IMG/VR virus record: IMGVR_UViG_3300021512_000003
Span: 1 to 64,000 of that record
DNA from: a virus
Reading direction: 5' to 3' (one strand)
Length of the DNA: 64,000 nucleotides
Positions within the stretch are counted from its first letter, which is position 1; each line of letters begins with the position of its first letter. Positions 1 to 61,320 of the stretch are shown one piece after another. Made by a program: the position numbers and the translations under genes. The notes beneath the pieces are model-generated. The model did no database searches. It had not been told where the DNA came from and was given only the letters and a program-made list of their open reading frames with translations.

Positions 1-73
1 CAAGAAAAATCAACTGCTGTAAGTAGTAATAATCTTTCACCTGTAAGCACCCCACCAATTAATATATAAACGA

Positions 74-129
74 ACATAACAAGGCCATTAAATCCGACAG
101 CGTAGCTGCGGTTTATGGCTACGTTATAA
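74..129 (+). other. attC-like recombination site
   Basis: ACATAAC-aaggccattaaatccgac...gcggtttatggctac-GTTATAA; imperfect palindrome bounded by R''/R' boxes; follows the stop of a partial + strand ORF (1-69). Confidence 0.85.
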
Positions 130-132
130 CTC

Positions 133-786
133 TCAACTCAACACATCACCAGTGTCTGTGAACTTAGTCCCAACTCTCTTATGATAGTCCCTAAGGGCAG
201 CACCCTCGTCCAACTCTATCCCCAACTTCTTAGCTAGGTTTGAATTAAAGTCAGTAACATCTTTATTTAGAGGCACGTACTTATTCTTACTTACAGAGAG
301 TTTTGATAACTGACTATAACAATAAATCCAATCCTTCATGTACTGTCTGTACGCACACTTGAACTCATTCCACTTCTTATTCCTAAATGCGGAATCAGCA
401 GTAGCCTTCCTAAGCCCCATCCCCTCAATCAAAGTAATTACAGCACCAAAAGCCTGTTTTGTGCTTTCATTTAAGCACAAGTTACTTTTATTGTAGTAGT
501 CGTCTATATCTGTAATAGGAAACGGTTTGGGGTAGGTAAAGCTAATACCCTCGTTTGGCGTAGACCCGTCACAATACATGCTCCGCACATATAAGGCTTT
601 CTCAAAATTAGTAGTAAGTACATTCACACTTTCTCTGTGTCCCTCTTTTATCCGTGAGCACAACTCAAACAGCTTCTTCCTATACCAATATCTCATACAA
701 AACCCCCACACCAAACCCGTCACAGCAGTTATTCCAGCAACAATAACTCCTGCAAGGATCCGACTATCGTATCCGTTATTACCCAT
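133..786 (-). CDS. Cassette-borne hypothetical protein with N-terminal transmembrane helix
   Basis: 217 aa ORF; hydrophobic stretch ILAGVIVAGITAVTGLVWGF; fills cassette 124-882. Confidence 0.7.
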   Translation of the reverse strand: MGNNGYDSRILAGVIVAGITAVTGLVWGFCMRYWYRKKLFELCSRIKEGHRESVNVLTTNFEKALYVRSMYCDGSTPNEGISFTYPKPFPITDIDDYYNKSNLCLNESTKQAFGAVITLIEGMGLRKATADSAFRNKKWNEFKCAYRQYMKDWIYCYSQLSKLSVSKNKYVPLNKDVTDFNSNLAKKLGIELDEGAALRDYHKRVGTKFTDTGDVLS

Positions 787-828
787 TAGTCTGCCTTAAC
801 AGTTTTAGTTAGGCATATAATAGACCAA

Positions 829-888
829 TTATAACAAGTGCATCAACTCAGACGGCGCAGAGCGCCGCTGGTTATTCAGACGTTATAA
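829..888 (+). other. attC-like recombination site (family shared with 5231 and 5776)
   Basis: TTATAACaagtgcatcaactcagacggcgcagagcgccgctggttattcagacGTTATAA. Confidence 0.9.
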
Positions 889-919
889 ATAATAACCAAG
901 AACCTAGGAGGTTCTAAGT

Positions 920-1093
920 ATGTCAACACAACAAGTGATACCTAAATGCCCAGCACAAAACTGCCAATCAACTGCTTTTGTAGTTGTACGTGATGAACAT
1001 TTAGTTGATATTTACGACAACACTATCCAGTTTGTTTGCTGCAAGGTATGTTCCACCATAGCGGGAGTTTTACCAACTCACGTGGAGCAGTAA
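920..1093 (+). CDS. Small Zn-ribbon-like protein, 57 aa (not in ORF track)
   Basis: AGGAGG RBS inside hairpin 899-915; MSTQQVIPKCPAQNC...VCCKVC; resembles 6129-6317. Confidence 0.6.
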   Translation: MSTQQVIPKCPAQNCQSTAFVVVRDEHLVDIYDNTIQFVCCKVCSTIAGVLPTHVEQ

Positions 1094-1268
1094 CGCCCTC
1101 CAGTAAACTAGCAAGTGGTAACTTTGCAACCCAAACTTGTGCAGTCTCTGCATAAGTTTGCCCCTTACTGGCAACATAGTTTGCTGCCTCATCAGGGCAA
1201 GAGAATATAGCCTCTGGGTTGCAAAGTACTTTTGTGCGCGGCACAACACCGTAGTATGTCTTATTCAT
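1023..1268 (-). CDS. Small hypothetical protein, convergent partner of 920-1093
   Basis: AGAGGA RBS; PEAIFSCPDEAANY resembles PKAIFKCYPSAVDY in 6250-6486. Confidence 0.6.
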   Translation of the reverse strand: MNKTYYGVVPRTKVLCNPEAIFSCPDEAANYVASKGQTYAETAQVWVAKLPLASLLEGVTAPRELVKLPLWWNIPCSKQTG

Positions 1269-1290
1269 AATTTCTTTCCTCTAAAATTAT

Positions 1291-1350
1291 TTCTAACAAG
1301 AAGTTTAATTGTGACGCAGACAAGCTGCGCACATTAGCCTTACGTTAGTG
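1291..1350 (+). other. attC-like recombination site (near-identical to 7731-7790)
   Basis: TTCTAACaagaagtttaattgtgacgcagacaagctgcgcacattagccttacGTTAGTG. Confidence 0.85.
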
Positions 1351-1397
1351 GGGATTACTCCCTCTCAGTGTGTCCCCACTAACCATAGTAACACAAC

Positions 1398-4300
1398 CTA
1401 CCCTAGATTACCATAATAACCTTCTTTAATTGCATCATAAAGGTTTGCTGCTGTGTGTATTTCACCATCATATTCTACCACAGTGTCTCCAGTAATGCTA
1501 TGGTTATTTCCATCTTCTGTCTTAAACTCATACAACGTCTTTTTTAAATCTTCATCTTTCACCAACACTCCTTGGAATACTTCTGGGTTAAATCTAAAGC
1601 ATGTGACCCCCTTCAAGCCAGCATCATAAGCTTTAAGGAACACATCTCTAAACTCATCAAAAGGGGCTTCTGTAGGTATTTGTATTGTTTTCGATATTGA
1701 TGAATCTATCCATGTTTGTGCAGCAGCTTGCATAGCTATATGTTGCTCTGGAGTAATATCTGTAGCGTCTTGAAAGACCACCTCTTCTTCCTTACCTAGA
1801 GACCTTGCCACAAGAAGCTCATAACTACAAACTTCAACGGCCTCTTTAGACTTCTTCCCTTGTACAATCACATTCCTTGTGTATTTGTGTGCGAAAGATT
1901 GCTCTATTCCCGCTGAACAGTTATTCCCAACACTAAGAGATAGAGTTCCAGTCGGGGCCACACTATTCGCGTGAGTGAACCTACACCCATACTTCTTCAA
2001 ATCTTCACCTAGAGAACCACCCTCTGCCTCGTCTGCTTTTATAACCCTCTGCATGAAAACACCCTTACACCACAGAGACAGGTTATCACTCTCAGCCAAT
2101 AAAGGGGCCATACCCTTCGCCTTAGCGAGTTTTACGCCTTCCCTATAGCTACCCAGTGCTAACACCTTAGTAACCTCTCCTGTGAAGGATATGGCCTCCT
2201 CAGAGCCATAGTTTATACCTAGTAGAGAGAGACAAGAGCCTAAGCCTAGATACCCCATACCATGTCTACGCTTAGATAATATCTCTGCTCTTTGTTCTTC
2301 TAGTGGAAGGCCATTAAGTTCTACCACATTATCTAGCATACGAGTAAAGATGGCTATTACTTTGTTGTATGTGTCCCAGTCAAAAGAAGCTTCTTCAGTG
2401 AAGGGGTTTAGTACAAACTTAGTCAGATTTATTGATCCAAGTAGGCAGCTCCCGTGTGGGGGGAGAATTTGTTCACCACAGTTATGTGCATGTAGTCCAT
2501 TTGCATCAAAGGTGTTTATTCCTGTTATCTGAACATCATACACAGCCTCAACACCCTCTTCTGTAACCTCTTCTACTCTGGCAAAGAAACATTCACGATT
2601 TAGTTTACGTTTATAGCTTGCCAGAGCTTGCTGTAGGCGTGTGGCTTTTCTTGTATCTATAAAACCAACCTTGTCCTTGAACTGTGTTAAATTTTCACCA
2701 CTAACAACTAGCTCGTGATTTGCTTTAGTCTTATACTCACTTACTCCACCTCTTCCGTTAGGTAACATCCTTGTACCTGCTGGACGGCGATTTTTATAGA
2801 TAGTTGATACAATGCCTAGACGTAATAACATACGTTGCACCGCTTCAAGCCTAGGTAAGTCCGATTGAGATAGACGCACACTTACGCCTTTTTCCTGTGT
2901 ACCTTGTACAGAGCCATCAGTGTCAAAAAAGCCTCGTAAAAAACCCTTATAGAATTCACTAGAGGCTTTTTCAATCTTAGGAGAGATAACTTTATCTCCA
3001 GCTTGCATACCAACTTCCCGCGCAAGTTTATAAATAGCTGAAAGACTTAAGCGATATTCATTACGTCCTGTAACCTCTGACCAACCTTTAAAGTCACTCC
3101 TGTGAGGCAGTGTCTTTGCTGCTCTCAACGCTTCAACCATCACAGCATTAACACCATCATTAGCTGTTGCAACTTGCTTCCACACAGAGAGAACAGCTGC
3201 ATCCTGCTTCAAAGTCCCGTCTCCTATCAGCAGGCCTAGTAAATAACCTTGTTCTTCAGTGTACTCACCTTGCCATTGTTCCTGCTCTTTGTGCTTATTA
3301 AGTAAAACACAATCACCAACTTTCAGATTAGAGGCCTCACACCACTCTGTTTCAGTGTCATAACGACTAGAACCCACCCTACGCCTGACACGATGGTTTG
3401 GTGTCAGGCGTAACTTATAACCTTCTTTTGTCTGTAAGTTTACAACAGCTTTTGTTGTAGTCTTAAAGAAACCTTCTTTTCCTGAAGCATAAGATACCCC
3501 ATCAACTTGTGCAATAAAAGGTTTACCAATTAAATCACTAACTTGTCTAGCTCCTTTATTTGTTTGCACCCAAGTATCTGCTGTCACACATGGATTACAC
3601 GCCCGAAGCCTTTCGCAGAAGTAATTGTTGTTCTCTCTGTTGGCTTTATCTATAAGAAGGAACCCAGGTTCTGCATAATCATATGCAGTACGCATTAATG
3701 TTTCCCAAATGTCTTTTGCTCTCACAGTCTTATAAACCTTGCAGAGGATCTTGTTATCCTTTACTGTATAACCTGCTTCCCCACAATAGGTTTCCTCCCA
3801 GAACATATCTTTCCATACAAACTCTAAACTCTTGTCGCCCTTCTCTGCTTTAGATGCAGGGAAGAACAGCTTCCAATCTTTATCCTCTTTCACTGCCTCA
3901 ATGAAGTCATCTGTAATCAAGACAGAGAGGTTGAATTGTCTAAACCTTCCAGTCTCTTTCTTAGCAGTAATGAATGCTTCGACATCAGGATGCCATATTG
4001 CAAATGTCGCAATCTGCGCACCACGTCTTCCCCCAGCAGAGCTGATAGTGAAGCACATCTTATCAAAGATGTCCATAAAAGGTAGGGGGCCTGTTGTGTA
4101 AGCACCTACTCCAGAGACTAAAGCACCACTTGGCCTAATCGTAGACATCTCATAGCCAATGCCTGCTCCAGAAGAGAGTGTTATAGCGGCTTGACTGTTT
4201 GATTGCATGATTCCTTCCACAGAATCTTCCACGATTTTTCCAGTAGTACAATTTACCAAGCTTGCAGAAGGCTTATACTCCTCTGCTCCAGCGTTCGCTA

Positions 4301-4517: not shown

Positions 4518-4531
4518 AGTACTCCTTTAGT

Positions 4532-4825
4532 TTACGCGACACCAAAAGACGGTAGCGCCTTTCTTAGATTGTTCGTGATTGTCGTAATGCTCTGGACACC
4601 TTGATATTTGCCGTTGCAATATACGCAGTAGTTGTCAATCCTGTCGCCCTCCGAGCATTCAAAAATGGCCGTCTCTCCTGTACCGATGCGCTCAACTGTT
4701 ATTCTCAGAGATGTGTCAACTTTCCCAGATTCTAGTGCAGCCGTTTCCATTCTCAGCATCGCTTTTTTGATGTTGGCACGTTGAGACCAGATCTTCTTCC
4801 TTTTTGCTGTTACCCTATAAGCCAT
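4532..4825 (-). CDS. Hypothetical protein
   Basis: 97 aa; AGGAG RBS supplied by the array leader element. Confidence 0.65.
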   Translation of the reverse strand: MAYRVTAKRKKIWSQRANIKKAMLRMETAALESGKVDTSLRITVERIGTGETAIFECSEGDRIDNYCVYCNGKYQGVQSITTITNNLRKALPSFGVA

Positions 4826-4873
4826 TGATTTTACTCCTACGACCTTGCGTAGTCTGTATAGTCCAGTGTTATA
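4818..4873 (+). other. Array leader / candidate attI-like site, copy 1, with IHF consensus
   Basis: 49-bp element identical to 57323-57371; IHF match AATCAATGGCTTA on - strand (4818-4830); ends in G|TTATA at 4868. Confidence 0.65.
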
Positions 4874-4909
4874 TTCTTAAGTCTTGTAAGTATTTGAGGT
4901 ATTCATCTA

Positions 4910-5236
4910 ATGATAAAAACAGACGACTCTATGAACACCTACAAGGAAAATTTATCAAAGGCTTTTGATACTAATTTACCTGAAGCAGATAAAACAGAAC
5001 TCTTAACCTACTTTCTAAATTTTAAGTCTCAAACTATCAACCATGTCAACGGCTGTCCCCCTAAAGCACAAGAAGCTGTAAATCTTCTTCAAACTTCACT
5101 AAATAAAGCCAATAAGAGCAGCGATAAACAAAGTCACTGGTATCAAAAACCAATAGGTATTATCTTCCTTAGTGTTGTTGGTATCACTTTGGCTTGGCTC
5201 TTGAGACATCTGCTAACCCCTTACATACAAATATAA
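4910..5236 (+). CDS. Cassette protein with C-terminal TM helix, canonical orientation
   Basis: Stop TAA lies within R'' (ATATAAC); WYQKPIGIIFLSVVGITLAWLL. Confidence 0.75.
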   Translation: MIKTDDSMNTYKENLSKAFDTNLPEADKTELLTYFLNFKSQTINHVNGCPPKAQEAVNLLQTSLNKANKSSDKQSHWYQKPIGIIFLSVVGITLAWLLRHLLTPYIQI

Positions 5237-5290
5237 CAAGTGCATCAACTCAGACGGCGCTATGCGCCGCAGGTTATGCAGGCGTTAGGT
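5231..5290 (+). other. attC-like recombination site
   Basis: ATATAACaagtgcatcaactcagacggcgctatgcgccgcaggttatgcaggcGTTAGGT. Confidence 0.9.
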
Positions 5291-5317
5291 GCCTCAATAC
5301 TAGAGTAAGGAAACACT

Positions 5318-5755
5318 GTGGACGCTTTTGCACTAGATATACTTAGAGAATTAAAAAACATAAGCACACCCTACGTTAATATAAATAACGTAACCTCTAA
5401 CTACGACATCCGTAGTAAGTATTTTATATCCTCTTATTTGCGACTAGAGTCTGAAGATTTAATTGCATCTGCAAATACACCTGATTGCGGTTTAGAGGTA
5501 GGGGCAGATGGAATACCTTCATGGTCTGTCGTTGATGTATATGTCACCGAGAAAGGTGACTTACTTCTCCATCCTCCAAAAACACCAATAAGTAAGGTGG
5601 TATTAAAAATTACCGAACACCCTGTTGTGGCAGCACTCATTGTTGCGGGTATTTTGGGCTTAGTTGCTTCTGTACCCACTTTTCTTGGTAGCGACCAGCA
5701 GTCAGGCCAACAACAAAAACTATCCCAACCCAAAACCAATGTATCTCAACCATAA
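5318..5755 (+). CDS. Cassette protein with C-terminal TM helix, canonical orientation
   Basis: AAGGA RBS and GTG start; HPVVAALIVAGILGLVA. Confidence 0.75.
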   Translation: MDAFALDILRELKNISTPYVNINNVTSNYDIRSKYFISSYLRLESEDLIASANTPDCGLEVGADGIPSWSVVDVYVTEKGDLLLHPPKTPISKVVLKITEHPVVAALIVAGILGLVASVPTFLGSDQQSGQQQKLSQPKTNVSQP

Positions 5756-5775
5756 ATCCTCCTGTCTGAACTTGC

Positions 5776-5835
5776 ACCTAACAATTGCATTAACTCAGAC
5801 GGCGCAGAGCGCCGCTGGTTATGCAGGCGTTATAT
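5776..5835 (+). other. attC-like recombination site
   Basis: ACCTAACaattgcattaactcagacggcgcagagcgccgctggttatgcaggcGTTATAT. Confidence 0.9.
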
Positions 5836-5837
5836 TG

Positions 5838-6038
5838 CTACGCGAGATCTTTACTTTTTACGTTTCCACAAATTTCGCACTGCAGATGATATTCAATATA
5901 TTCGTTACCGTCTGAAGATTGTATAGTTACCTTGTTAATTATTATCCACTTGTGCTCATGATCTGAAAAATTCCCAACAACTATCCTATATAGCCAACCA
6001 ATCATGGTATGCACTCCGTAGTTACTGCAATCTAACAA
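5838..6038 (-). CDS. Small cassette protein (HxW...CxxCG); true start probably ATG at about 6005
   Basis: GGAG before MIGWLY; fills cassette 5830-6080. Confidence 0.6.
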   Translation of the reverse strand: MLDCSNYGVHTMIGWLYRIVVGNFSDHEHKWIIINKVTIQSSDGNEYIEYHLQCEICGNVKSKDLA

Positions 6039-6086
6039 TTAATTCCAGCGGACGCGCTGGGCGCGCAGCTGAATCCGGTGTTATAA
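6030..6086 (+). other. attC-like recombination site
   Basis: ATCTAACaattaattccagcggacgcgctgggcgcgcagctgaatccggtGTTATAA. Confidence 0.9.
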
Positions 6087-6128
6087 ATAATAACCAAACC
6101 AACCAATGCACCAATTAAGGAGTTAAAA

Positions 6129-6317
6129 ATGGAAGGCGTTCAATCTCAGATAGGATATTATCCTAAGTGTCCTCATTGTCTTGAGGCTAATGGGTTCAAT
6201 ACTACACTAGACCCTCATACAGTTGGTGCTAGTGGAATGTACGAATTAGTTAGTTGTAAGTCATGCCAGACACTGATTCACATTTCTTGTCCCCCAAATC
6301 AGATCGTTTCAAACTAA
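6129..6317 (+). CDS. Small Zn-ribbon-like protein
   Basis: AAGGAG RBS; PKCPHC...SCKSC. Confidence 0.65.
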   Translation: MEGVQSQIGYYPKCPHCLEANGFNTTLDPHTVGASGMYELVSCKSCQTLIHISCPPNQIVSN

Positions 6318-6486
6318 AGTAGTCTGTAGGCACTTCTTGTATTTCATACAATGTATGAGAAGTGCCTTTCTTGTTTCTCTGCGCATAATCTACAGCACTC
6401 GGATAACACTTAAAGATAGCTTTAGGGTATAACTTTAAGTGCTCTACATCTGGGTAAACTAAAGTAATTGTAGCCATTTTATACAT
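6250..6486 (-). CDS. Small hypothetical protein, convergent partner of 6129-6317
   Basis: RBS present; local similarity to 1023-1268. Confidence 0.6.
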   Translation of the reverse strand: MYKMATITLVYPDVEHLKLYPKAIFKCYPSAVDYAQRNKKGTSHTLYEIQEVPTDYFSLKRSDLGDKKCESVSGMTYN

Positions 6487-6538
6487 CCTTCTAATTTAAA
6501 ATTATTATAAACAGTAACCAAGAACCTAGGAGGTTCTC

Positions 6539-6763
6539 ATGTCCTCAGTAAATCTAGTCAGTAACCACTAGGATAAAGGCTTCTGCCTAACAGAAGGTTG
6601 TAAGAGTGGCGCACTGACTATATACAACTCAAACGGTCTGCGGCTCCACTTTAAATGCCCCGTCTGTAAAATCGACAAGGAACTTAGTCCCACTGAGAGT
6701 AAAGAGCAAATCGAGATGATTGCTTATGAACTCGCTGCCAGTCTTACCACAACAAGTGAGTAA
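6539..6763 (+). pseudogene. Zn-ribbon-like ORF interrupted by in-frame TAG at codon 11
   Basis: Hairpin RBS 6521-6537; MSSVNLVSNH*DKGFCLTEGC...KCPVC...; frame stays open for 63 codons after the TAG at 6569-6571. Confidence 0.55.
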
Positions 6764-6829
6764 ACTGCTGTTTAGGAACTGCTCAAGCACCTGGGCAGTT
6801 TTCTCCTGTGCCGTATCTTCTATACACAT
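6629..6829 (-). CDS. Small hypothetical protein, convergent partner
   Basis: AGGGA RBS; 66 aa. Confidence 0.55.
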   Translation of the reverse strand: MCIEDTAQEKTAQVLEQFLNSSLLTCCGKTGSEFISNHLDLLFTLSGTKFLVDFTDGAFKVEPQTV

Positions 6830-6891
6830 AAAACTATTCCCTTATAATATACGATTAACCTTAATAACTAAGAACCGAGGAGGTTCTAAAT

Positions 6892-7068
6892 ATGTCACCT
6901 AACCAACTATTTGCAGAAGGTATTAGCAAACTATCTTCCATCCAGACAGCAGCAGAAACTACTGAGTACGAGAAGAATCTAGCAGAAGGGTTAATTCGTA
7001 CTCTTTCATCTTTGCACTCTGAAATCCTTTCTTTGAAAGAGCAAGTTCAAACTCTGCAAGACAAATAA
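6892..7068 (+). CDS. Small helical/coiled-coil protein, 58 aa (not in ORF track)
   Basis: Hairpin RBS 6871-6887; MSPNQLFAEG...LKEQVQTLQDK. Confidence 0.6.
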   Translation: MSPNQLFAEGISKLSSIQTAAETTEYEKNLAEGLIRTLSSLHSEILSLKEQVQTLQDK

Positions 7069-7153
7069 TTTGTCCATAAAGCCGAGTTTTTAGGTCAGAG
7101 CTTAGATGTATGTCTATAATTTGGAGTTTTTCAAAAAGTTCGTTTATTAGCAT
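6959..7153 (-). CDS. Small hypothetical protein, convergent partner
   Basis: GGAG RBS; 64 aa. Confidence 0.55.
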   Translation of the reverse strand: MLINELFEKLQIIDIHLSSDLKTRLYGQIICLAEFELALSKKGFQSAKMKEYELTLLLDSSRTQ

Positions 7154-7217
7154 GTACTTCTCTCCGTTTACATTGAAATACTAACTTAGAAAACCAAGAA
7201 CCTAGGAGGTTCTAAAC

Positions 7218-7484
7218 ATGGCTACTGAAATCTTGTTCAAGAAAATACAAGACACATTCCACTACGAGATCGCTAGTAGTGCTTCTGCATTTTCTTGTAA
7301 AGAAGTGAACCTAGTTGATTCAAAGTGGGATCAACTAGGGAGTGCATGGCACGAAGGGTTAAACGATCATGTCAGAGATGGTTTAGCCAACTACCAAAAA
7401 ATATTTGAAGAGGTAAACCAAATACACCCTATACCAGAAACACTTAAATACTTTTACGCTTACAGGGACGCAGCCCTTGCATGA
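7218..7484 (+). CDS. Small hypothetical protein
   Basis: Hairpin RBS 7197-7213; 88 aa. Confidence 0.65.
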   Translation: MATEILFKKIQDTFHYEIASSASAFSCKEVNLVDSKWDQLGSAWHEGLNDHVRDGLANYQKIFEEVNQIHPIPETLKYFYAYRDAALA

Positions 7485-7707
7485 TGTCTTGGAATGTGTC
7501 CTTACCAATCAAAGGTATTGTCTCGTTAAGAGATGCCTTCAGTCTAATGAAAATTTCAGGGGCTGTTAGGTGTTCATACTCTAAAGCTCTCTGAATAATT
7601 GCAGGGGTGGCTAGAGGGCTGGTTCCAGCGGCCCTCTCTTGTCTCTGTTGATCAGGGACTATGTAACCTGTGTAGGGGTCGTACCAGTACATCTTTTCTT
7701 CACTCAT
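7444..7707 (-). CDS. Small hypothetical protein, convergent partner
   Basis: GGAG RBS; 87 aa. Confidence 0.6.
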   Translation of the reverse strand: MSEEKMYWYDPYTGYIVPDQQRQERAAGTSPLATPAIIQRALEYEHLTAPEIFIRLKASLNETIPLIGKDTFQDIMQGLRPCKRKSI

Positions 7708-7730
7708 AAAACTATCTCCATTAAAATTAT

Positions 7731-7790
7731 TTCTAACAAGAAGCTTAATTGTGACGCAGACAAGCTGCGCACATTAGCCTTACGTTATGT
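7731..7790 (+). other. attC-like recombination site
   Basis: One mismatch to 1291-1347 up to the GTTA. Confidence 0.85.
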
Positions 7791-7961
7791 GTCGGTATAT
7801 TCGCTATCGTTTTCAAACTTCACTATAGCCAAATATAAATATTCTGGTATTTTCTGCCAGTGCGTCCTGTCGTATGAAGGCGTGCCCAAATAGTAGGTTC
7901 CGTCTTCCTCTTTCAATTCCAAATTGTCGTAATAGTTACTTAGCTTGCTTAACTCAGTCAT
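7785..7961 (-). CDS. Small cassette protein, 58 aa (not in ORF track)
   Basis: MTELSKLSNYYDNLEL...; its stop is the TTA of the R' box. Confidence 0.55.
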   Translation of the reverse strand: MTELSKLSNYYDNLELKEEDGTYYLGTPSYDRTHWQKIPEYLYLAIVKFENDSEYTDT

Positions 7962-7993
7962 AATTTAGCCCTTCTTTATAGTTAAAAACAACG

Positions 7994-8188
7994 TTAGGTG
8001 CCTTGCTCTTTAATTGTTTTTAGTAGTTCTTGGGCAAGTTTAACCACGCCACTATCTTCGTGATGGTGTACTTTTCTACCGTCATCAACAGAGTAAACTG
8101 TGCATCCATTACCAAGTTTTTTCCCCGTGTTTACGGCGCTTCTAGCCATAATCGGTTGTCCATTTATTAAGATTGCTACGGTCAACAT
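7994..8188 (-). CDS. Small cassette protein
   Basis: GGAGGAGG RBS; stop lies within GTTAGG. Confidence 0.7.
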   Translation of the reverse strand: MLTVAILINGQPIMARSAVNTGKKLGNGCTVYSVDDGRKVHHHEDSGVVKLAQELLKTIKEQGT

Positions 8189-8206
8189 TTTTTTGCCTCC
8201 TCCGGC

Positions 8207-8267
8207 ATATAATAATCAATTTAATTCGGATTCGCTCTACGAAGCTTAAATTGCTTTTTGGTTGTCT
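8207..8267 (+). other. Degenerate terminal attC-like site
   Basis: ATATAATaatcaatttaattcggatt...gcttaaattg resembles attC 60074; TAAC changed to TAAT. Confidence 0.5.
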
Positions 8268-9548: not shown

Positions 9549-9551
9549 TCA

Positions 9552-10088: not shown

Positions 10089-10125
10089 CTCCACTAATAA
10101 CAATAAAAATAAACAAGAGGACAAT

Positions 10126-11525: not shown

Positions 11526-11533
11526 GAGGTTAG

Positions 11534-48849: not shown

Positions 48850-48905
48850 TAACCTTTTGATTTCATCAGTATGACTTTGTGTAGTCTGTATAGTCCAGTG
48901 TTATA
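48850..48905 (+). other. Array leader / candidate attI-like site, copy 2, with IHF consensus
   Basis: 41/49 identical to the other copies, last 25 nt identical; IHF match AATCAAAAGGTTA on - strand (48850-48862); G|TT at 48900. Confidence 0.65.
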
Positions 48906-48937
48906 AATAATAACCAAGAACCTAGGAGGTTCTAAAT

Positions 48938-49183
48938 ACGAAACCAATAAACCACCTAAACTATAAAACGATTGAGAAAGACCTCAACCAAGCACTACAA
49001 TCCCACATCTCTTACGAAGATTGGATGGAGTTTATTGTAAGACTTGTAGGCGGCTCGGAAGACATCTACCAGATCAACTACATACTTCCAACCAGTGCTG
49101 GTATTACTACAGAAGTTCCGCTTGCAGAAGCAACTTCTTTATACGTGGGTATAATTCGTCTTGTTGCTCCTCCGCAAGTGTGA
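48938..49183 (+). pseudogene. 81-codon ORF whose start position reads ACG instead of ATG
   Basis: Hairpin RBS 48917-48933 then AAATACG, where the sister copy at 6888 has AAATATG; frame open to TGA 49183. Confidence 0.55.
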
Positions 49184-49345: not shown

Positions 49346-49403
49346 TTCTAACAAGTTAATGTTGTCGGAATTGCTACGCAATCCGCAAATTAAGACGTTA
49401 TGT
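49346..49403 (+). other. attC-like recombination site
   Basis: TTCTAACaagttaatgttgtcggaattgctacgcaatccgcaaattaagacGTTATGT. Confidence 0.85.
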
Positions 49404-49404: not shown

Positions 49405-49779
49405 TCAGTACTGCTCTCTCATTTGCTGTCGAAGTTGCACAATTTCATTCTTCAGCTTCTCATTTTCCTCCACCAAATCTTGATTCAAGTCTTTAACTAC
49501 CTCATCCTTATGGTTGGAGTAAATAGCTTGGCGCAACTCCTTGTAATCATACGTGTGGTTAGCCCTCCCCCCACGGTATCCTTTAAATCCATCCATCAAG
49601 GCGTTTCGGTAATTTGTCCAGTGATCAGAGTCAACGTAATAACTGACATCAGTATATAAATCGCCCAATACCTCATTCATCAAAGCTACAAGTTTGGGTT
49701 TAAAGCTGTCCATTATTTTCTGTGCTTCTTCTTTCCCTTGCTCTGTAAGTTCTGGGTATAAAGGATAATCTTCACTCAT
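49405..49779 (-). CDS. Cassette-borne phage hypothetical protein
   Basis: GGGAG RBS; 124 aa; fills cassette. Confidence 0.75.
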   Translation of the reverse strand: MSEDYPLYPELTEQGKEEAQKIMDSFKPKLVALMNEVLGDLYTDVSYYVDSDHWTNYRNALMDGFKGYRGGRANHTYDYKELRQAIYSNHKDEVVKDLNQDLVEENEKLKNEIVQLRQQMREQY

Positions 49780-49802: not shown

Positions 49803-49866
49803 ACATAACAAAGCACTGAAAAATCGGACTGGCAGAAGAGCCAGCCACTTACAATAGGCGCTATAC
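49803..49866 (+). other. Degenerate terminal attC-like site
   Basis: ACATAACaaagcactg...ctggc-agaaga-gccag...ggcGCTATAC; R' GTT changed to GCT. Confidence 0.65.
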
Positions 49867-50657
49867 AGCCGCCTGTTACTAACACTTATGTATTTGACGG
49901 TTCAACTTCTTCGCTAAACTGTAACCCGTATGTAGCACATTCTGTGCAAATTTCAGTTTGAATGTACTCACCTTCTCGGTCGTTAGTTGTGTTCAGCCCA
50001 TATCTGCTTACCCTAAAAACTGAGTCGCAGTTGATGCACTTTGCTATATAAGCTCTTTTGTGCTTATTACTATGCCTAATTAACTCCACTATCAAAACCT
50101 CTACTGGTAATATAACAACGGGCTGTTTTGTCTCTCACTTCATACCCCTCACATAACAAAGCGGCTCTTAGCATCTTGATAGTGTCTTTAATCCTCCTGA
50201 TAGAGGGGAGCTTCCTGTATTGTGTAAATTTGTGAACCTCTCCAACAGACTCGTATATCCAACCATCACATCTAATTTTAAAACAATCACCAACCTTTAT
50301 ACATTGTACCACAAGGTCTGGCTTTTGTGTTATGTGTTTTCTTGCTTTCTTCTTCAGAGTCACCACCGTCAAGAAACATGTTATCGTAGTGTTGATGAGG
50401 TAAAACAACCACAGAATCACAGGCATTACAGACACCAACCAGTCTTACAAGTCCAGAGCCATCACTAAAAGGTGTATTTCTTAATTGAAATGTTACATTT
50501 TGAAATGACTTGCAAGGACTACAAGCTGCTCTTTTAGTGTCTCCAACCTTCAATGTTTGCTGCATATCTTTGTTGTTAAAACTCAAACCCACCCCTCTAC
50601 TTGTACCATTGTTGTTTGACGTATCTTCATAAAACAAGAGTATAGCACACTTAAAAA

Positions 50658-53168: not shown

Positions 53169-53218
53169 AACCTATAGTTAAAGTAACAAGCTCCTGCACT
53201 GTTTTGCAACTTGTGCAT

Positions 53219-54623: not shown

Positions 54624-54632
54624 CTCTTACAA

Positions 54633-57143: not shown

Positions 57144-57315
57144 AGTCTCACCTATCCATTAAAGCCTTTTAATTATCTGGTGTGTGTATACATAGTTAAT
57201 ACCTTATCGTTAATACCTCATCTTTTTATAATGTACATACTAAGACGTTCTCTAAAACCGTACAGTATTCTTGTTCCTCTGTTAGCCTTACCACAGGCTT
57301 ACTACTACTGGTTTG

Positions 57316-57371
57316 TAAGTGCTTGATTTTACTCCTACGACCTTGCGTAGTCTGTATAGTCCAGTGTTATA
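57316..57371 (+). other. Array leader / candidate attI-like site, copy 3, with IHF consensus
   Basis: 57323-57371 identical to 4825-4873; IHF match AATCAAGCACTTA on - strand (57316-57328); G|TT at 57366. Confidence 0.65.
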
Positions 57372-57374
57372 AAC

Positions 57375-57575
57375 CTAATCATTGTTAGGTTTTGGCTTAA
57401 AGTCACCATCAGCATCGCAATGCTCAGGTGGCCACCCATGCTTTCTAATATTCATCGCTCTAAGCGGATACTTTATTAAATACCTATAGAGCGTCTCAAG
57501 CATTAACCCAATACCCACAATAATAAAAAATGTAAGAACTGGACTGTCGCTCATAAATTCATAAATTGTTGTCAT
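57375..57575 (-). CDS. Small membrane protein (cassette)
   Basis: TM helix; RKHGWPPEHCDADGD. Confidence 0.7.
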   Translation of the reverse strand: MTTIYEFMSDSPVLTFFIIVGIGLMLETLYRYLIKYPLRAMNIRKHGWPPEHCDADGDFKPKPNND

Positions 57576-57597
57576 ATCTATGGCCTGTTAAGTCGGT

Positions 57598-57669
57598 TTA
57601 TAACAAAGCAGTCAAGCTGACAGTCTCTACGCTGCGCTTCGTTCCTGCCGCTTACTTATTGCGTTATGT
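57598..57669 (+). other. attC-like recombination site
   Basis: TTATAACaaagcagtcaagctgac...gccgcttacttattgcGTTATGT. Confidence 0.85.
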
Positions 57670-58356
57670 TGCACTAATTCTATCTTGTGCAATCTTAAAG
57701 TATTCTTCATCTAGCTCAATGCCAATAAACTTACGACCAAGGTTTTTACAAGCTACGCCTGTGCTACCGCTACCTAAAAACGGGTCGAGTATTGTTGCAC
57801 CTTTATCACTAAACTTTATCAATAGGTATTCCAATAAATCAACTGGCTTTTGTGTTGGGTGTAATTTATTGCCAGTTCTATTGAACTTTAAAATATTAGG
57901 ATCACGCTTACCGTTTATAAGTCTACGTCCTTTCTGTATAAAAATAATCATTTCATACTTTGGTGCAAAGTCGGCTTTTAAATCACCCATACTAGTGTTG
58001 TTCTTTTCCCATATAAGTATATTCTTTATTTTAAATTTTTGCTCTAGTGCTTGCTTGAATTTATCAATATTATGAAAGCTACAAAAAACATAATGCGCCG
58101 TATTGTCCGCAGCAACTCTAAATAATTCATCAATCCAAACATCAAGCCATCTTAAGTCTTTATCGTTTTTTATCTTACTGTATTTCTCAATCCTATAGTT
58201 ACTCTGAAACTCCATACCATATGGCGGGTCGGTCAATATCATATCAACTGAACCATCAGGTATTTCTTTCATTCTTTCTAAGCAGTCTCCTTGCATCAAC
58301 CAAGGATTTAGATCTTCTTTTTCTATATCTGCTAGTCGTTCATTTTTGTAGTGCAT
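57664..58356 (-). CDS. Orphan N6-adenine/N4-cytosine DNA methyltransferase, beta class (cassette)
   Basis: TDPPY, HPTQKP, DPFLGSGST, GIELD; stop lies in R'. Confidence 0.92.
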   Translation of the reverse strand: MHYKNERLADIEKEDLNPWLMQGDCLERMKEIPDGSVDMILTDPPYGMEFQSNYRIEKYSKIKNDKDLRWLDVWIDELFRVAADNTAHYVFCSFHNIDKFKQALEQKFKIKNILIWEKNNTSMGDLKADFAPKYEMIIFIQKGRRLINGKRDPNILKFNRTGNKLHPTQKPVDLLEYLLIKFSDKGATILDPFLGSGSTGVACKNLGRKFIGIELDEEYFKIAQDRISAT

Positions 58357-58381
58357 TTTAATCTTTCCTTTAGTTCGTGCA

Positions 58382-58457
58382 ATATAACAACAATTTCAAA
58401 AAGACACGTACAGTTTGTTCCAAACGTGCCCTTAGCATTTTAAATTAAGGGTTATGT
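58382..58457 (+). other. attC-like recombination site
   Basis: ATATAACaacaatttcaaaaagac...ttttaaattaaggGTTATGT. Confidence 0.8.
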
Positions 58458-58472
58458 TACTAAACCAAGCGT

Positions 58473-58862
58473 TTACCAACTACATAAATCATGCTGTTTA
58501 TTTAGAGAGTGCATCTCTACATCTTCGCACGTCTCAATATCAAACATTCCAATATGGCAATCACTTGGCTCAATATTTAAAGTCTCAGCTAGCCATTTGT
58601 ATGCTTCTTTTCTTTTCATATCTCCAAATTTCCATAATGGATCAAAGGCTCTATGCGCTGCGCTTTTTGCTTTTCTTAGCTCTTTATTTGCCAACCTACC
58701 TAATGGCTTTGTTGTTCCTTTGTGTGTACCAACGTAGGCATCACAACCAACACAAGAGTAAAAACTCAAGCTAAATAAATCCTTTCGGTGTGGGTAAACT
58801 TCCTTTCCTGTAACTGCCTTTGAGAATTGTTTGCAGTATGGGCATGTTGGTGTCAAATTCAT
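58473..58862 (-). CDS. Zn-finger protein (DUF3268-like; cassette)
   Basis: CPYC...CVGCDAYVGTH...PLGRLA...AHRAFDPLW...CHIGMFD. Confidence 0.8.
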   Translation of the reverse strand: MNLTPTCPYCKQFSKAVTGKEVYPHRKDLFSLSFYSCVGCDAYVGTHKGTTKPLGRLANKELRKAKSAAHRAFDPLWKFGDMKRKEAYKWLAETLNIEPSDCHIGMFDIETCEDVEMHSLNKQHDLCSW

Positions 58863-58888
58863 TCTATCAATCCTTTTTAGTGGTGGTA

Positions 58889-58961
58889 ACATAACAAGGT
58901 TTTCAAAGCGGACACATTACAGCGTACCGCTTTCATTTAGCCGTTTAAAACGAGGTTAGGT
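58889..58961 (+). other. attC-like recombination site
   Basis: ACATAACaaggttttcaaagcggac...gccgtttaaaacgagGTTAGGT. Confidence 0.85.
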
Positions 58962-58987
58962 TGCAAAAACAACATTTAAGTTGTCCA

Positions 58988-59185
58988 TTAAGTGACTGAA
59001 CGAATATCCAGACTTTTCATGCTTTTTATGTAAAGAACTCTCATACCAGTCGCCATCTCCATTGCAACCTTTAATTCTGCATTATTAGGCTCGAATCTTG
59101 AGTATAAGATAGTATAATCACCATTCAATTCAGGAGAACTCTTACTATTGAGTATAACTTTCTCGCCTGCTTTAAATTTAGCCAT
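58988..59185 (-). CDS. Small phage hypothetical protein (cassette)
   Basis: MAKFKAGEKVIL motif; RBS. Confidence 0.6.
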   Translation of the reverse strand: MAKFKAGEKVILNSKSSPELNGDYTILYSRFEPNNAELKVAMEMATGMRVLYIKSMKSLDIRSVT

Positions 59186-59211
59186 AGAATAACCCCTTTA
59201 ATTTAACAGCA

Positions 59212-59270
59212 GCCTAACAAGGCTGCTGTTTTGGAAGCGCTGAAGCGCTCCACAAAGCTTTACGTTATAT
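59212..59270 (+). other. attC-like recombination site
   Basis: GCCTAACaaggctgctgttttggaagcgctgaagcgctccacaaagctttacGTTATAT. Confidence 0.85.
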
Positions 59271-59497
59271 GTAATAAGTGTCCACACAAACTTCAGCATG
59301 AATGTGTATCTGGTCTTTTCCACATCTCTATCTAAACCATCTTAAACAGTCGTATACTTAAACCCCCTCACAACAAACCGGACACCCTTGTGAGGTTAAG
59401 CGGTAGCCCACCAAGGAGGAGGGCAAGCACTCAAACTTTACTTACGATTAACACTCAGTTCTGTGGTGGCAATAACTGACCAACCACAGGAAAGCAT

Positions 59498-59596
59498 ATG
59501 GACCCAATTAGCATCATCCTCACCCTTAAAGTCGCAACCCTATCCGTTGCGCTAGTTACTGAACTCGTCAAGCTGTATAAAGAACTTAGTAAGTAA
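59498..59596 (+). CDS. 32-aa hydrophobic peptide, candidate type I toxin (TisB/DinQ-like pattern)
   Basis: MDPISIILTLKVATLSVALVTELVKLYKELSK; RBS partly inside a hairpin; the only ORF I found with a clear RBS in this 533-bp cassette. Confidence 0.55.
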   Translation: MDPISIILTLKVATLSVALVTELVKLYKELSK

Positions 59597-59731
59597 CTAA
59601 CAATTAGAGTGCAGTACCAAAGATAATCTATAAAACGGTTTCAGAATCCAACTGAATAAAATGGAGTTTAAAATAAATCTTAAATCAGTAGCGTCTTATC
59701 CTCCTTGAGTTTGGCGCTCATTAAATATTAC

Positions 59732-59803
59732 ATCTAACAATCACATTAAGTCACTTCGTTCGGACTGTCGCTGACGCGTCAGCCGCTTATGTGGGCGTTA
59801 TAT
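59732..59803 (+). other. attC-like recombination site
   Basis: ATCTAACaatcacattaag...cggactgtcgctgacgcgtcagccgcttatgtgggcGTTATAT. Confidence 0.85.
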
Positions 59804-60060
59804 CACTCATCCACCCATAAAAGCTTTTTAGTTATTCTGGTTTCAGTCACTTCTTTAGAGGTCTCAATGATCTCTGATTTTGTTTTGAACATCACGAACA
59901 GCCTCTCAAGCTCTGCGTCGAGTGCTGCATCAAAAATATCACTCATCCCATGATCGGTGGCGTAGTCGCGCATACAAAGGAGTTCTATGGTGTAATCTCC
60001 CAGCTCACACCCGTCAAGGTGCGCGTATTCGGTCAGAATGTTGTATCTATCTTCGTTCAA
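59803..60060 (-). CDS. Hypothetical protein (cassette)
   Basis: GGAGG RBS and TTG start. Confidence 0.7.
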   Translation of the reverse strand: MNEDRYNILTEYAHLDGCELGDYTIELLCMRDYATDHGMSDIFDAALDAELERLFVMFKTKSEIIETSKEVTETRITKKLLWVDE

Positions 60061-60073
60061 AATAACCTCCGTA

Positions 60074-60129
60074 ATCTAACAATCAATTTAAACCGGATTG
60101 CTACGCAACCGCTTAATTGAGCGTTATAA
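60074..60129 (+). other. attC-like recombination site
   Basis: ATCTAACaatcaatttaaaccggattgctacgcaaccgcttaattgagcGTTATAA. Confidence 0.9.
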
Positions 60130-60138
60130 GGCTTAGCC

Positions 60139-60390
60139 CTAATTCTCTTTCTCCCAATTCCTTTCGCCTTTTTCAAAGGCAACAGCGATGTCCAGCACCT
60201 CTCTCACGGTTTTTCCGTACTGGTGCTGCGAAGGAAGGCTGAATATCTCAACAGGTACTTTTTCCATACCTGGTTGGCTTCCAATCAAAGAGTTTTGTTG
60301 TATTTTAACGCCACATCCCTCACCTGTGCCGTCTTCCACTAGCATACGCTCTATAAAGTCGATGCGGTCTTTGTCTGTAATTTCGCTCAT
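60139..60390 (-). CDS. Phage hypothetical protein (cassette)
   Basis: TDKDRIDF...TVREVLDIA motif. Confidence 0.7.
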   Translation of the reverse strand: MSEITDKDRIDFIERMLVEDGTGEGCGVKIQQNSLIGSQPGMEKVPVEIFSLPSQHQYGKTVREVLDIAVAFEKGERNWEKEN

Positions 60391-60417
60391 GTTTATATCC
60401 TTGGTAGGTAAATCGCC

Positions 60418-60474
60418 TTATAACAAGGCATTGCAGCGGACGCGCTCTGCGCGCCGCATAGTTTTGCGTTAGCT
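60418..60474 (+). other. attC-like recombination site
   Basis: TTATAACaaggcattgcagcggacgcgctctgcgcgccgcatagttttgcGTTAGCT. Confidence 0.88.
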
Positions 60475-60668
60475 ATCATTAATTACTCTACGCACTGCAC
60501 ACAATTTATCCCCGACAACGATGTAGCCCGCTTTTATCCGTTGTGTAAACTGGGCGCGTTGCACTCCGATTGCTCGCGCAAATGCGCTTTGATTCCTTTG
60601 AAAGTTTCGGCTATAAAGTCGGCCAGCCTTTTCAGCCCGTCCGCTTTGCATTTTTCGCTAGGTTTCAT
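60469..60668 (-). pseudogene. Cro-like HTH gene, apparently frameshifted
   Basis: ATG 60668 gives ...LADFIAETFKG; the HTH NQSAFARAIGVQRAQFTQRI continues in another frame. Confidence 0.5.
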
Positions 60669-60874
60669 AGTAGATTAGAGTCGATATATTCCTGCGCTTC
60701 ATCCTTGGAAGCGAAGGTGAGCGCACCTTTTTCATCGCTCACATCAGCTCGCGCAATCGAATCATATATTAAAAACGGCCCTGCAAAATCAAACCGCCAA
60801 AGCCGAGTTGGGTGAAACCTGCATTCCATAACCCAACCCCCTATGTTGTCTGCGTTGCAAATTTCGTGACTCAT
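60665..60874 (-). CDS. Small hypothetical protein (cassette)
   Basis: GAGGAG RBS; downstream of own promoter. Confidence 0.7.
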   Translation of the reverse strand: MSHEICNADNIGGWVMECRFHPTRLWRFDFAGPFLIYDSIARADVSDEKGALTFASKDEAQEYIDSNLL

Positions 60875-60922
60875 GTTGTTTCTCCTCAGCGCCTTCGGGT
60901 CACTCCCTTAGCTCATGTATGT

Positions 60923-60951
60923 ATAGTAATATACACCCCACACACTGTCAA
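60923..60951 (-). promoter_or_regulatory. Sigma70 promoter inside cassette 60469-61037
   Basis: TTGACA-17 nt-TACTAT; palindrome GTATA-GTAA-TATAC overlaps the -10. Confidence 0.75.
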
Positions 60952-60981
60952 CGAAATGCTATACAAATAATCAAATAAAAT

Positions 60982-61043
60982 AGCTAACAAAGCAACTCAA
61001 ATCCGACTCCGCTGGCGCTTGCGGTTTAGCTGAGGCGTTATGT
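60982..61043 (+). other. attC-like recombination site
   Basis: AGCTAACaaagcaactcaaatccgactccgctggcgcttgcggtttagctgaggcGTTATGT. Confidence 0.9.
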
Positions 61044-61238
61044 GGAAAAACAGGCCTCAAGGGCATCTAAATACTGTGGTAAATTCTCATAGTTTCCCGT
61101 AAGCTCAGCCGTCTTCCTTTCACTAGCGACTGCTCTTGCTGATGAGAGAACGCGGAGCACTTGATGGCTGGTTCCGCCCTGCCAGCTTAGTGCTTTTATA
61201 GCCTCTTCCAAAAACGGATCTTGTTTATTATTTGTCAT
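61038..61238 (-). CDS. Small phage hypothetical protein (cassette)
   Basis: ALSWQGGTSHQV motif; stop in R'. Confidence 0.7.
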   Translation of the reverse strand: MTNNKQDPFLEEAIKALSWQGGTSHQVLRVLSSARAVASERKTAELTGNYENLPQYLDALEACFST

Positions 61239-61275
61239 ATAGATATACCTATAGTTTATTTGTGGTTATAAATTC

Positions 61276-61320
61276 ACATAACAAGGCAGTCAAGCAGACT
61301 GCTGAAAGCGTTGCTTTTTT
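61276..61320 (+). other. Truncated terminal attC (left arm only)
   Basis: ACATAACaaggcagtcaagcagactg; no matching right arm or GTTA. Confidence 0.65.

Follow-up and report, generated by a model that had tools for sequence, protein, structure and literature searches.

How did a phage come to carry small genes set between short imperfect palindromes that resemble the recombination sites of integrons? The phage is IMG/VR virus record IMGVR_UViG_3300021512_000003, and the stretch analyzed here, called the window below, is its first 64 kb (64,000 nucleotides). A first-pass annotation of the window, made from the letters alone, had read it as a lytic phage with arrays of integron-type gene cassettes. 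The complete record is 81,888 bp long (completeness of 100% by CheckV, with direct terminal repeats of 127 bp), and the public run that holds the phage best is a hydrothermal-vent metagenome, probably its source run. We conclude that the phage, which is of a virulent type, probably carries genuine integron-type cassette arrays, five in all, of the kind known as CALINs (clusters of attC sites lacking integron integrases), and that these would be moved in trans by the integron integrase of a host. A cassette would then consist of a small gene or gene pair followed by a + strand attC-type imperfect palindrome, and cassettes would be inserted and reordered as circles, with crossover at the G|TT of the site.

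The window has 28 occurrences of the pattern TAACAA..GTTA, where 8.9 are expected, and none of 100 shuffles reached 28. The sites were scored with two covariance models, R1, which rests on six phage sites and a hand-supplied structure, and R2, built from 25 rows of bacterial sites only (Luteimonas, Shewanella, and Desulfosarcina). Run with R2 as a surrogate for IntegronFinder's own attC model, the covariance-model search that the first-pass annotation had proposed found 21 distinct sites (22 rows) genome-wide, all on the + strand and scoring 19.8 to 65.5 bits, 20 of them with at least 20 bits; it found none in the controls, which were 376 kb of related phage loci plus the vent contig L149 described below. 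Sixteen of the 21 lie inside the window, at E ≤ 0.011, and the other five lie beyond it, at genome positions 75580, 76004, 76294, 76678, and 80148. R1, with filters off, gave 21 + strand rows representing 20 distinct sites (one in the terminal repeat); its remaining matches were weak minus-strand echoes and four scattered ones, each of at most 15.7 bits, and it had no match in 372 kb of relatives. The pattern excess, the clustering on the + strand where it had been claimed, and the model matches confirm the observation of cassette arrays. The tally of about 20 sites in four arrays survives only in part: 16 sites in the window are solid, three are degenerate, and three (4818, 48850, and 57316) are copies of a leader. 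Three elements, near 8205-8267 and 49806-49878 and at genome position 77164, are degenerate ends of arrays and go unscored by both R1 and R2.

Bacterial sites of the same type were found by scanning one genome per species with a degenerate site pattern, which returned at least 120 stretches. On 80 of these loci, all preselected by the pattern, R1 gave at least 68 matches, often several per locus on one strand. With default filters, same-strand arrays were seen in Luteimonas (9 matches), Shewanella sp. OPT22 (5), Desulfosarcina (5), and Vibrio mimicus (4); the V. mimicus matches vanish with filters off. An integron integrase above the curated TIGR02249 cutoff was present in four of the five bacterial genomes tested, and the Desulfosarcina locus lies 10 to 13 kb upstream of the intI gene of that genome. 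All eight R1 matches beside intI were upstream of it and on the opposite strand, and the + strand of the window is therefore the attC top strand. At E ≤ 1e-6, R1 had 35 matches in 17 of 61 Shewanellaceae genomes (best, 61.5 bits) and 13 matches in 11 of 61 Vibrionaceae genomes (best, 50.9 bits). The phage sites thus appear closer to those of the Shewanellaceae, a hint that the host may be found among bacteria with short-site, Alteromonadales-like integrons; this pointer is a weak one, since R1 penalizes the long Vibrio sites. No Rfam family reached its gathering score on the window, but we know of no attC family in Rfam, so this says little.

When the bottom strands were folded with TAAC and GTTA paired, all 21 sites formed a single stem. 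The first internal loop is short and near symmetric in most sites, with 1 to 6 nt on both arms, and the terminal loop mostly has 3 to 8 nt. By our counts from the folds, one-sided bulges number 44 on the 3' arm of the bottom strand and 5 on the 5' arm, and the innermost bulge is a T in 14 of the 21 sites; the canonical arm was assigned from the orientation beside intI and from the usual layout of attC sites. The strong bias of the bulges to one arm and the unpaired spacer across the 21 sites bear out the expectation that extrahelical bases would appear on folding. In a 25-row alignment fitted to R2, pairing is kept in 91.2% of cells, and changes on both sides are seen in 16 of 18 stem pairs. 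Covariation scores 0.50, compared with 0.114 for shuffles (none of 500 reached the observed value) and 0.036 to 0.094 for slid partners; fitting to R2 favors structure, and the slid controls use the same alignment. The four box pairs, U-A, A-U, A-U, and C-G, are kept in 24 or 25 of the 25 rows, and mean column identity in a plain alignment is 44%, so that structure is conserved more than sequence. RNAalifold found no structure on the plain MAFFT alignment because MAFFT had left the arms out of register, and a six-site alignment with a structure given by hand was used instead. Fold, covariation, and two reciprocal covariance models together support the assignment of the phage sites to the attC type.

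The first-pass annotation had also pointed out that the first bases of nearly every cassette are the reverse complement of those at its far end, and had taken this as the footprint of circular cassettes. All five complementarities that it quoted are present (5287/5779, 57369/57601, 58454/58892, 60126/60421, and 60471/60985). We scored the footprint throughout the genome by comparing the six bases beyond each GTTA with the six bases before the next TAAC. Of 23 adjacent units, 21 score 4 to 6 of 6, and the mean is 4.65; the null means are 2.24 for 627 nonadjacent pairs and 1.73 for the two flanks of a single site. None of 100,000 permutations reached the observed mean, and on these numbers the footprint claim stands. 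Terminators or regulatory hairpins would hardly leave such a footprint. Complementarity at 5 of 6 bases is also seen between two more distant flanks, one following the last good site of array 5 (76727) and the other preceding the 80148 site, at a distance of 3.4 kb. This pairing may be due to chance, as 18 of the 627 null pairs score 5 or 6. The stretch between genome positions 76727 and 80148 holds ligase-like and reductase-like fragments.

Four of the arrays begin with a common leader. This 55-nt element has exactly four copies, ending at 4871, 48903, 57369, and 75336, each lying on the + strand at the left edge of an array. It ends in GTTA, and identity between the copies ceases right after GTTAT. 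It is not a hairpin (fold z of about -0.4), and neither R1 nor R2 scores any of its copies. No sigma-70-like site was predicted in the two copies that fall inside the regions scanned (4400-8600 and 57000-62100). Because the orientation beside intI sets the + strand as the attC top strand, the leaders occupy the attI position, and judged from its sequence and placement, the leader is most likely a candidate attI, the docking site of the arrays. The left part of all four leaders (4818-4831, 48850-48863, and 57316-57329, and genome 75283-75296) fits, on the minus strand, the integration host factor consensus WATCAANNNNTTR; just four N positions vary, and four related copies amount to one observation. 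The one array without a leader spans the ends of the record (sites 80148, 77/81838, 832, and 1294). At the right flanks of arrays 2 and 4, a common 9-base word follows the last crossover point (two cases), and this word might be the old right half of an empty leader. A duplicated platform for arrays 3 and 5 was considered and dropped, as the flanking genes are not paralogues.

No enzyme that could move these cassettes is encoded by the phage. A six-frame search of the complete genome gave no candidate for TIGR02249 (integron integrase) or PF00589 (tyrosine recombinase), and a six-frame search of the whole record gave no resolvase and no Y1 transposase (PF01797, no match at E ≤ 1). Recombinase searches were positive in 10 to 14 of 14 control genomes, with TIGR02249 and PF00589 positive in all 14. 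PHROGs profiles run on 30 further open reading frames (ORFs) gave no integration or excision function; they returned HNH endonucleases, a weak endonuclease VII match, a ClpP-like protease, a methyltransferase, and a radical SAM protein. The window therefore lacks a tyrosine recombinase, as the first-pass annotation had said, and so do the remaining 17.9 kb; its suggestion that an IntI might be encoded elsewhere in the genome fails, the complete record having no IntI, PF00589 protein, resolvase, or Y1 transposase. Since the genome is complete, the absence of an integrase is definite. With no intI adjoining the arrays, the element is filed as a CALIN and not as an integron, and because the phage encodes no recombinase, the enzyme must act in trans.

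The cassettes also occur elsewhere. All evidence from samples, which came from the source run and from two others (X2 and X3) among the runs searched, rests on contigs, not reads. Runs X4 and X5 gave small shares, which were set aside as evidence of habitat. In the source run, positions 55600-61900 are covered at an even word-depth of 29 to 34 across core gene and cassettes, so the arrays belong to the phage and are no assembly chimera. In X2, another sample from another study, the cassette that starts at 57366 recurs with 2 differences over 127 bases; it is preceded not by the leader but by the 3' half of another attC-type site, like that at 6033, with the breakpoint on the G of GTTA. One X3 contig leads from 61287, which lies within the final site of array 4, back to 57366. 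The cassettes reach a depth of 8 to 14 in X2 and X3, compared with 0.3 to 2.8 for the phage backbone, and therefore also live in other, more abundant replicons. The 59735 site reaches a word-depth of about 214 in the source run, compared with 33 for the phage, and is found there with unlike flanks on both sides, starting at 59732/59735 and after 59768/59800. Loose ends lie at 59735 and 59800 and, in X3, at 60077 and 61034. The left half of this site is present on one metagenome contig, L149 (Ga0190303_1000068, 41,695 nt, from a vent). L149 has a gene for a 693-aa polymerase-like protein and, read by eye, an attC-type array at 3480-3782, whose last site is a truncated copy of the 59735 site with an unlike flank that matches a loose end in the source run; nothing on this contig was scored by R1 (filters off) or R2. 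A pattern scan of IMG/VR followed by R1 returned other viral contigs with 2 to 7 sites, and five whole viral records of 31 to 40 kb have 3 to 5 R2 matches each and no integrase.

All of the sites and leader copies in the window lie on the + strand. Array 1 opens with a site at 77..126 (R2 match 74-129, 42.2 bits) that has three one-sided bulges and lies inside the 127-bp terminal repeat. The next ORF, at 133..786 on the minus strand and so inverted relative to the top strand of the site, encodes 217 aa; its product has no family match, and no relative was found in viral contigs. After the site at 832..885 (R2 match 829-888, 54.3 bits) comes a cassette at 886..1293 with a repeat family D1 head and no Pfam match, in which two small convergent ORFs, at 920-1093 (+) and 1023-1268 (-), stand behind a conserved hairpin-embedded ribosome-binding site. 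The array ends on the right with a site at 1294..1347 (R2 match 1291-1350, 46.7 bits), which adjoins the ribonucleotide reductase gene and is 96% like the 7734 site over 71 nt.

Array 2 is headed by leader copy 1 (4818..4871), where identity between copies ends just after GTTAT. Two cassettes on the + strand follow in canonical orientation, one at 4872..5233 with an ORF of 108 aa (4910-5236) and one at 5288..5778 with an ORF of 145 aa (5318-5755). Their sites lie at 5234..5287 (R2 match 5231-5290, 62.0 bits) and 5779..5832 (R2 match 5776-5835); the latter has the top score of the genome, 65.5 bits, and a fold of -15.5 kcal/mol. The site at 6033..6083 (R2 match 6030-6086, 45.8 bits) is followed by a long unit, 6084..7733, made of four tandem convergent-pair modules without internal sites. 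D1 occurs in it at 6504, 6854, and 7180, its ends are complementary at 5 of 6 bases, and it looks like a set of fused cassettes. Beyond the site at 7734..7787 (R2 match 7731-7790, 50.0 bits), the array closes with a degenerate site at 8205..8267 (fold z of -2.4; no R1 or R2 match) that resembles the 60077 and 76678 sites and has lost its TAAC and GTTA boxes.

In array 3, leader copy 2 (48850..48903) is followed by a site at 49349..49400 (R2 match 49346-49403, 38.5 bits), an inverted cassette ORF of 124 aa at 49405..49779 (-), and a degenerate terminal site at 49806..49878. The last was placed by alignment, with no R1 or R2 match; in its left half it is almost identical to the terminal site of array 5.

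Array 4 lies upstream of the primase/helicase gene and begins with leader copy 3 (57316..57369). Its first cassette ORF, at 57375..57575 (-), encodes a small membrane-anchored protein of 66 aa that belongs to a widespread phage family, and its site is at 57601..57666 (R2 match 57598-57669, 33.9 bits). An inverted ORF for an N6/N4 DNA methyltransferase follows at 57664..58356 (-) (Pfam N6_N4_Mtase, E 8e-42), with its stop codon in the GTTA box, and then a site with a long loop at 58385..58454 (R2 match 58382-58457, 23.4 bits). The next inverted ORF, at 58473..58892 (-), encodes a DUF3268 zinc-finger protein (Pfam E 7e-38); sites are found at 58892..58958 (R2 match 58889-58961, 30.4 bits) and 59215..59267 (R2 match 59212-59270, 21.9 bits), the latter a paralogue of the 75580 site. 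The 468-nt unit at 59268-59734 has complementary ends and lacks any ORF of at least 50 aa; only one hydrophobic + strand ORF of 32 codons, at about 59499-59597, was seen by eye. Three sites come next, at 59735..59800 (R2 match 59732-59803, 32.4 bits), 60077..60126 (R2 match 60074-60129, 46.9 bits; a paralogue of the 76678 site), and 60421..60471 (R2 match 60418-60474, 34.6 bits). The cassette at 60472..60984 (-) carries two genes of 60 aa and 69 aa (60469-60651 and 60665-60874), neither with a family match, and has its own promoter-like site, TTGACA-17-TACTAT, at 60951-60923. In chromosomal integrons, cassettes with their own promoter are often toxin-antitoxin pairs. The array ends with a site at 60985..61040 (R2 match 60982-61043, 24.6 bits) and a degenerate terminal site at 61279..61316 (R2 match 61276-61330, 14.5 bits, E 0.77), whose flank is complementary at 5 of 6 bases; the left half of the terminal site is intact and its right half is not canonical.

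The cassette genes with names are those for the methyltransferase and the DUF3268 protein; for 20 other cassette ORFs, no Pfam family scored above threshold. A + strand ORF stands alone in two units, 4872-5233 and 5288-5778, next to the first leader; convergent ORF pairs occupy three units, and some 16 units have minus-strand ORFs only. These counts come from mechanical ORF lists, with ribosome-binding sites judged by eye. The minus-strand cassette ORFs are inverted with respect to the site but run in the same direction as the neighboring phage genes. A 39-nt cassette head occurs in five copies (882-920, 6504-6542, 6854-6892, 7180-7218, and 48900-48938). Its ribosome-binding site is enclosed by a small, perfect hairpin, and a small ORF on the + strand comes next, in each case overlapping a convergent minus-strand ORF at its 3' end; two of the small ORFs are rich in Cys pairs.

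Homologues of the named and widespread cassette genes were found in other phages. The 66-aa family shows an invariant C-terminal motif, R..NIR.HGWPP..CDADGD; it has 95 homologues, most of them from short contigs, and is present at 68 IMG/VR loci, in phages that vary widely in size. One viral record, L271, has a 61%-identical homologue between two sites, in the same inverted orientation. No 66-aa homologue was found in 400 genomes sampled from the class of genome G003, a search made without a positive control. In another viral record, L171 (IMGVR_UViG_3300036765_000016), a homologue of the cassette methyltransferase lies directly upstream of a same-strand attC-type match (about 11790-12600), in canonical orientation and opposite to the arrangement in our phage.

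The rest of the genome has a terminase, portal, and tail module on the + strand and, on the minus strand, a replication and nucleotide module with a family A DNA polymerase, a primase/helicase, an exonuclease, and three HNH endonucleases. The gene for the large subunit of ribonucleotide reductase (1398-4517, -) is split by an intein that carries a LAGLIDADG endonuclease domain (Pfam Intein_splicing and LAGLIDADG_3), and cassette arrays lie on either side of it. A second DNA methyltransferase gene, at genome 70279-71001 (+), lies outside the cassettes, and its product is 37% identical to the cassette-borne one. By its primase/helicase, the phage is closest among isolates to Vibrio phage 11895-B1 (61% amino acid identity), and the closest IMG/VR contigs are at 64%. 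The primase, one small gene, and the polymerase are common to the loci of eight relatives, whose primases are 52 to 64% identical; the 11 cassette genes found in arrays 3 and 4 are all missing from those eight loci. The arrays sit, as had been claimed, between core genes, namely, those for ribonucleotide reductase, DNA polymerase, and primase/helicase. They total about 13 kb, or 16% of the genome by our coordinates. To say that the accessory genome is built from cassettes is therefore an overstatement, and many other small genes lie outside the arrays.

The reading preferred here, genuine cassette arrays moved in trans by a host integrase, has to be weighed against a number of findings that speak against it. 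The training sites of R2 were picked by R1, and the two models are not fully independent. The strict R' box consensus, GTTRRRY in the wording of the available text of PMC9892861, fits only 2 of the 21 phage R' boxes, position 5 being T in 15 of 21. By our count, only 4 of the 19 distinct control sites from bacteria agree with it, and the variants GTTATAA, GTTATAT, and GTTATAC are found at Shewanella sites beside intI too; because bacterial controls deviate as often, the strict heptamer does not separate members from nonmembers among our controls. Two units fail the footprint score, 76727 to 77164 (1 of 6), which ends at a degenerate site, and 80200 to 81838 (3 of 6), which is 1.6 kb long. The 23-nt core of the leader has no exact match in viral contigs or in 185,579 species genomes. 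Most cassette genes run against the usual integron layout, in which the ORF lies upstream of attC on the top strand. That layout is usual, not defining, and inverted cassettes occur in chromosomal integrons. For the 66-aa family, R2 matches were present in only 3 of the 68 viral loci, and only in L271 is the gene directly flanked. The DUF3268 gene has a counterpart in the viral record L336 with 79% DNA identity confined to the ORF and no site there. The cassettes thus carry phage-type genes that elsewhere are not cassettes. Among the joints in other samples, one break in X2/X3 is at 57672, six bases to the right of GTTA and not at G|TT, and three listed joints (including 57369 to 59735 and 57370 to 59224) may hold intervening letters and are ambiguous; of these, the source-run joint 57370 to 59224 probably reflects cross-matching to array 5, which is paralogous.

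What carries the reading in the face of these findings is the family of sites, the footprint, the lack of a recombinase, and the varied contexts in other samples. The arrays might instead be passive cargo, fossil pieces of bacterial arrays gained by illegitimate or homologous recombination and kept for their useful genes, with no movement now. Capture routes of this kind were proposed for phage CALINs in the available text of Qi et al. (PMC9892861), and the complete genome has no integrase, degenerate sites mark four array ends (8205, 49806, 61279, and 77164), and the 1.65-kb four-module unit has lost its internal sites. Against this, the arrays occupy five separate loci, four of them headed by one leader in the same orientation, flank complementarity is near intact in 21 of 23 units, and near-identical site copies are common to different arrays. 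Most of the genes, moreover, are co-oriented with phage transcription and come from phage gene families, and the same cassette is found behind different sites in X2 and X3 with only 2 or 3 base differences. We regard passive carriage as unlikely.

We give still less credence to a system of the phage's own, in which an unrecognized recombinase among the phage proteins acts on the hairpins and the leader and the likeness to attC is convergent or distantly ancestral. It would suit the inversion of most cassette genes, their phage type, a leader with no exact counterpart in 185,579 species genomes, and the many cassette and flanking proteins without a family. R2, however, built on bacterial sites from IntI-bearing genomes, scores the phage sites at up to 65.5 bits, and the phage model R1 scores Shewanellaceae sites at up to 61.5 bits. 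No tyrosine, serine, or Y1 recombinase was found by searches whose controls were positive, and the homing-type HNH proteins, the weak endonuclease VII match, and the LAGLIDADG domain of the intein do not explain complementary cassette ends. That the elements are not cassettes at all, the hairpins being terminators or regulatory stem-loops and the repeats being spread by homologous recombination, is very improbable. The sites are intergenic hairpins, as such a view would have it, and two of them are terminator-like on the minus strand; yet these are only 2 of the 14 sites in the regions scanned (4400-8600 and 57000-62100), where no promoter-like site was found in any site or leader. The sites all keep to a single strand, also in places with genes in both directions, Rfam gave no match, and the outer flanks pair with the far end of the neighboring unit and not with the other side of the site itself, which comes close to refuting this explanation.

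If the preferred reading, cassette arrays served by a host integrase, is right, we infer the following course of events. The enzyme would most likely come from the integron of the host or of a co-resident element. On infection of an integron-bearing host, the host integrase would act on the folded bottom strands of the sites and on the leader, inserting, excising, and reordering cassettes, and the leader would dock them, in the role of attI, at four arrays. Leftward cassette genes would be expressed by read-through from phage promoters, and retention of genes that face these promoters would lead to the inverted orientation. Occasional loss of a site would give fused cassettes, such as 6084-7733, and degenerate array ends. 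Catalysis by host IntI, the attI role of the leader, current activity, and ongoing shuffling inside the phage are the inferred parts of this scheme. A more ambitious version holds that the phage runs a multiplatform integron without an integrase, its four-copy leader being a phage attI that recruits the host integrase during infection, and that accessory and counterdefense genes, among them the methyltransferase, are taken up, lost, and carried from one platform or co-infecting phage to another. We put this forward only as a tentative possibility, one that we think less likely than not.

If true, there would be a phage-side cassette pool of phage-type genes, mostly inverted and shared among vent replicons, that mirrors the antiphage defense cassettes recently described in bacterial integrons. 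In that arms race, a phage that devotes some 16% of its genome to attC cassettes while relying on a foreign integrase would stand on the opposing side. These genes are found with a site in some phages and without one in others, and could show how a cassette is born. The case offers 21 sites and one candidate docking site in a complete genome, along with vent samples in which the cassettes stand in varied contexts, and it bears on two questions, where cassettes originate and whether phages move them between bacteria.

The first-pass annotation had been aware of no such multiarray systems in lytic phages. This claim of novelty is too strong: according to the available text of Qi et al. 2023 (PMC9892861), 10,705 phage genomes yielded 3 complete integrons, one In0, and 17 CALINs, three of the CALINs in virulent isolates, and IntI1 recombined 5 of 6 tested sites from three virulent phages. 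In a 2026 survey of Acinetobacter phages, as far as its available text goes, 71 dfrA-positive genomes were screened for integron elements and none was found. We found no paper with a multiarray phage or a repeated array leader in the literature outside subscription journals and closed supplements, the latter including the table of 17 CALINs of Qi et al. Phage CALINs themselves have thus been known since 2023, and what is new here is the scale, with five arrays, a shared leader, and mostly inverted genes.

As described in the available text, the CALINs of Qi et al. (PMC9892861) share with ours a DNA methyltransferase cassette, some divergently oriented sites, some units with several ORFs, and a marine host background (PH101, a phage of Pseudoalteromonas, and P12002L, a phage of Polaribacter). 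The arrays shown in the figure legends have about 3 sites (TJE1 has 4 ORFs and 3 sites, and 2 sites suffice for a CALIN), whereas here there are 21 model-supported and 4 degenerate sites in five arrays. The four-copy leader at the array heads, the mostly inverted genes, and the complete genome also set our phage apart from what that text describes.

The sedentary chromosomal integrons of marine Gammaproteobacteria, represented here by the Shewanella and Vibrio control arrays beside intI, have the same site architecture, with a length of 50 to 72 nt as in Shewanella sites, and the same TAACAAG and GTTAT variants of the boxes. Their arrays likewise keep to one strand, show complementary flanks, and carry small genes that mostly defy annotation. 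The phage differs from them in having no intI and no recognizable attI or Pc promoter, in having several short arrays instead of one long one and heterogeneous sites instead of a species-typical repeat, and in carrying genes mostly antisense to the site top strand; its replicon, moreover, is a phage.

Among phages, the promoter early stem-loop (PeSL) modules of T4-type phages, which are promoter-plus-terminator units exchanged by homologous recombination, are similar in that short repeated stem-loops lie between small accessory genes and genes are exchanged as modules. The elements described here differ from PeSL modules in having no promoter-like site in the regions scanned, in having unit ends that are complementary across the unit, and in being matched by a model of bacterial attC sites.

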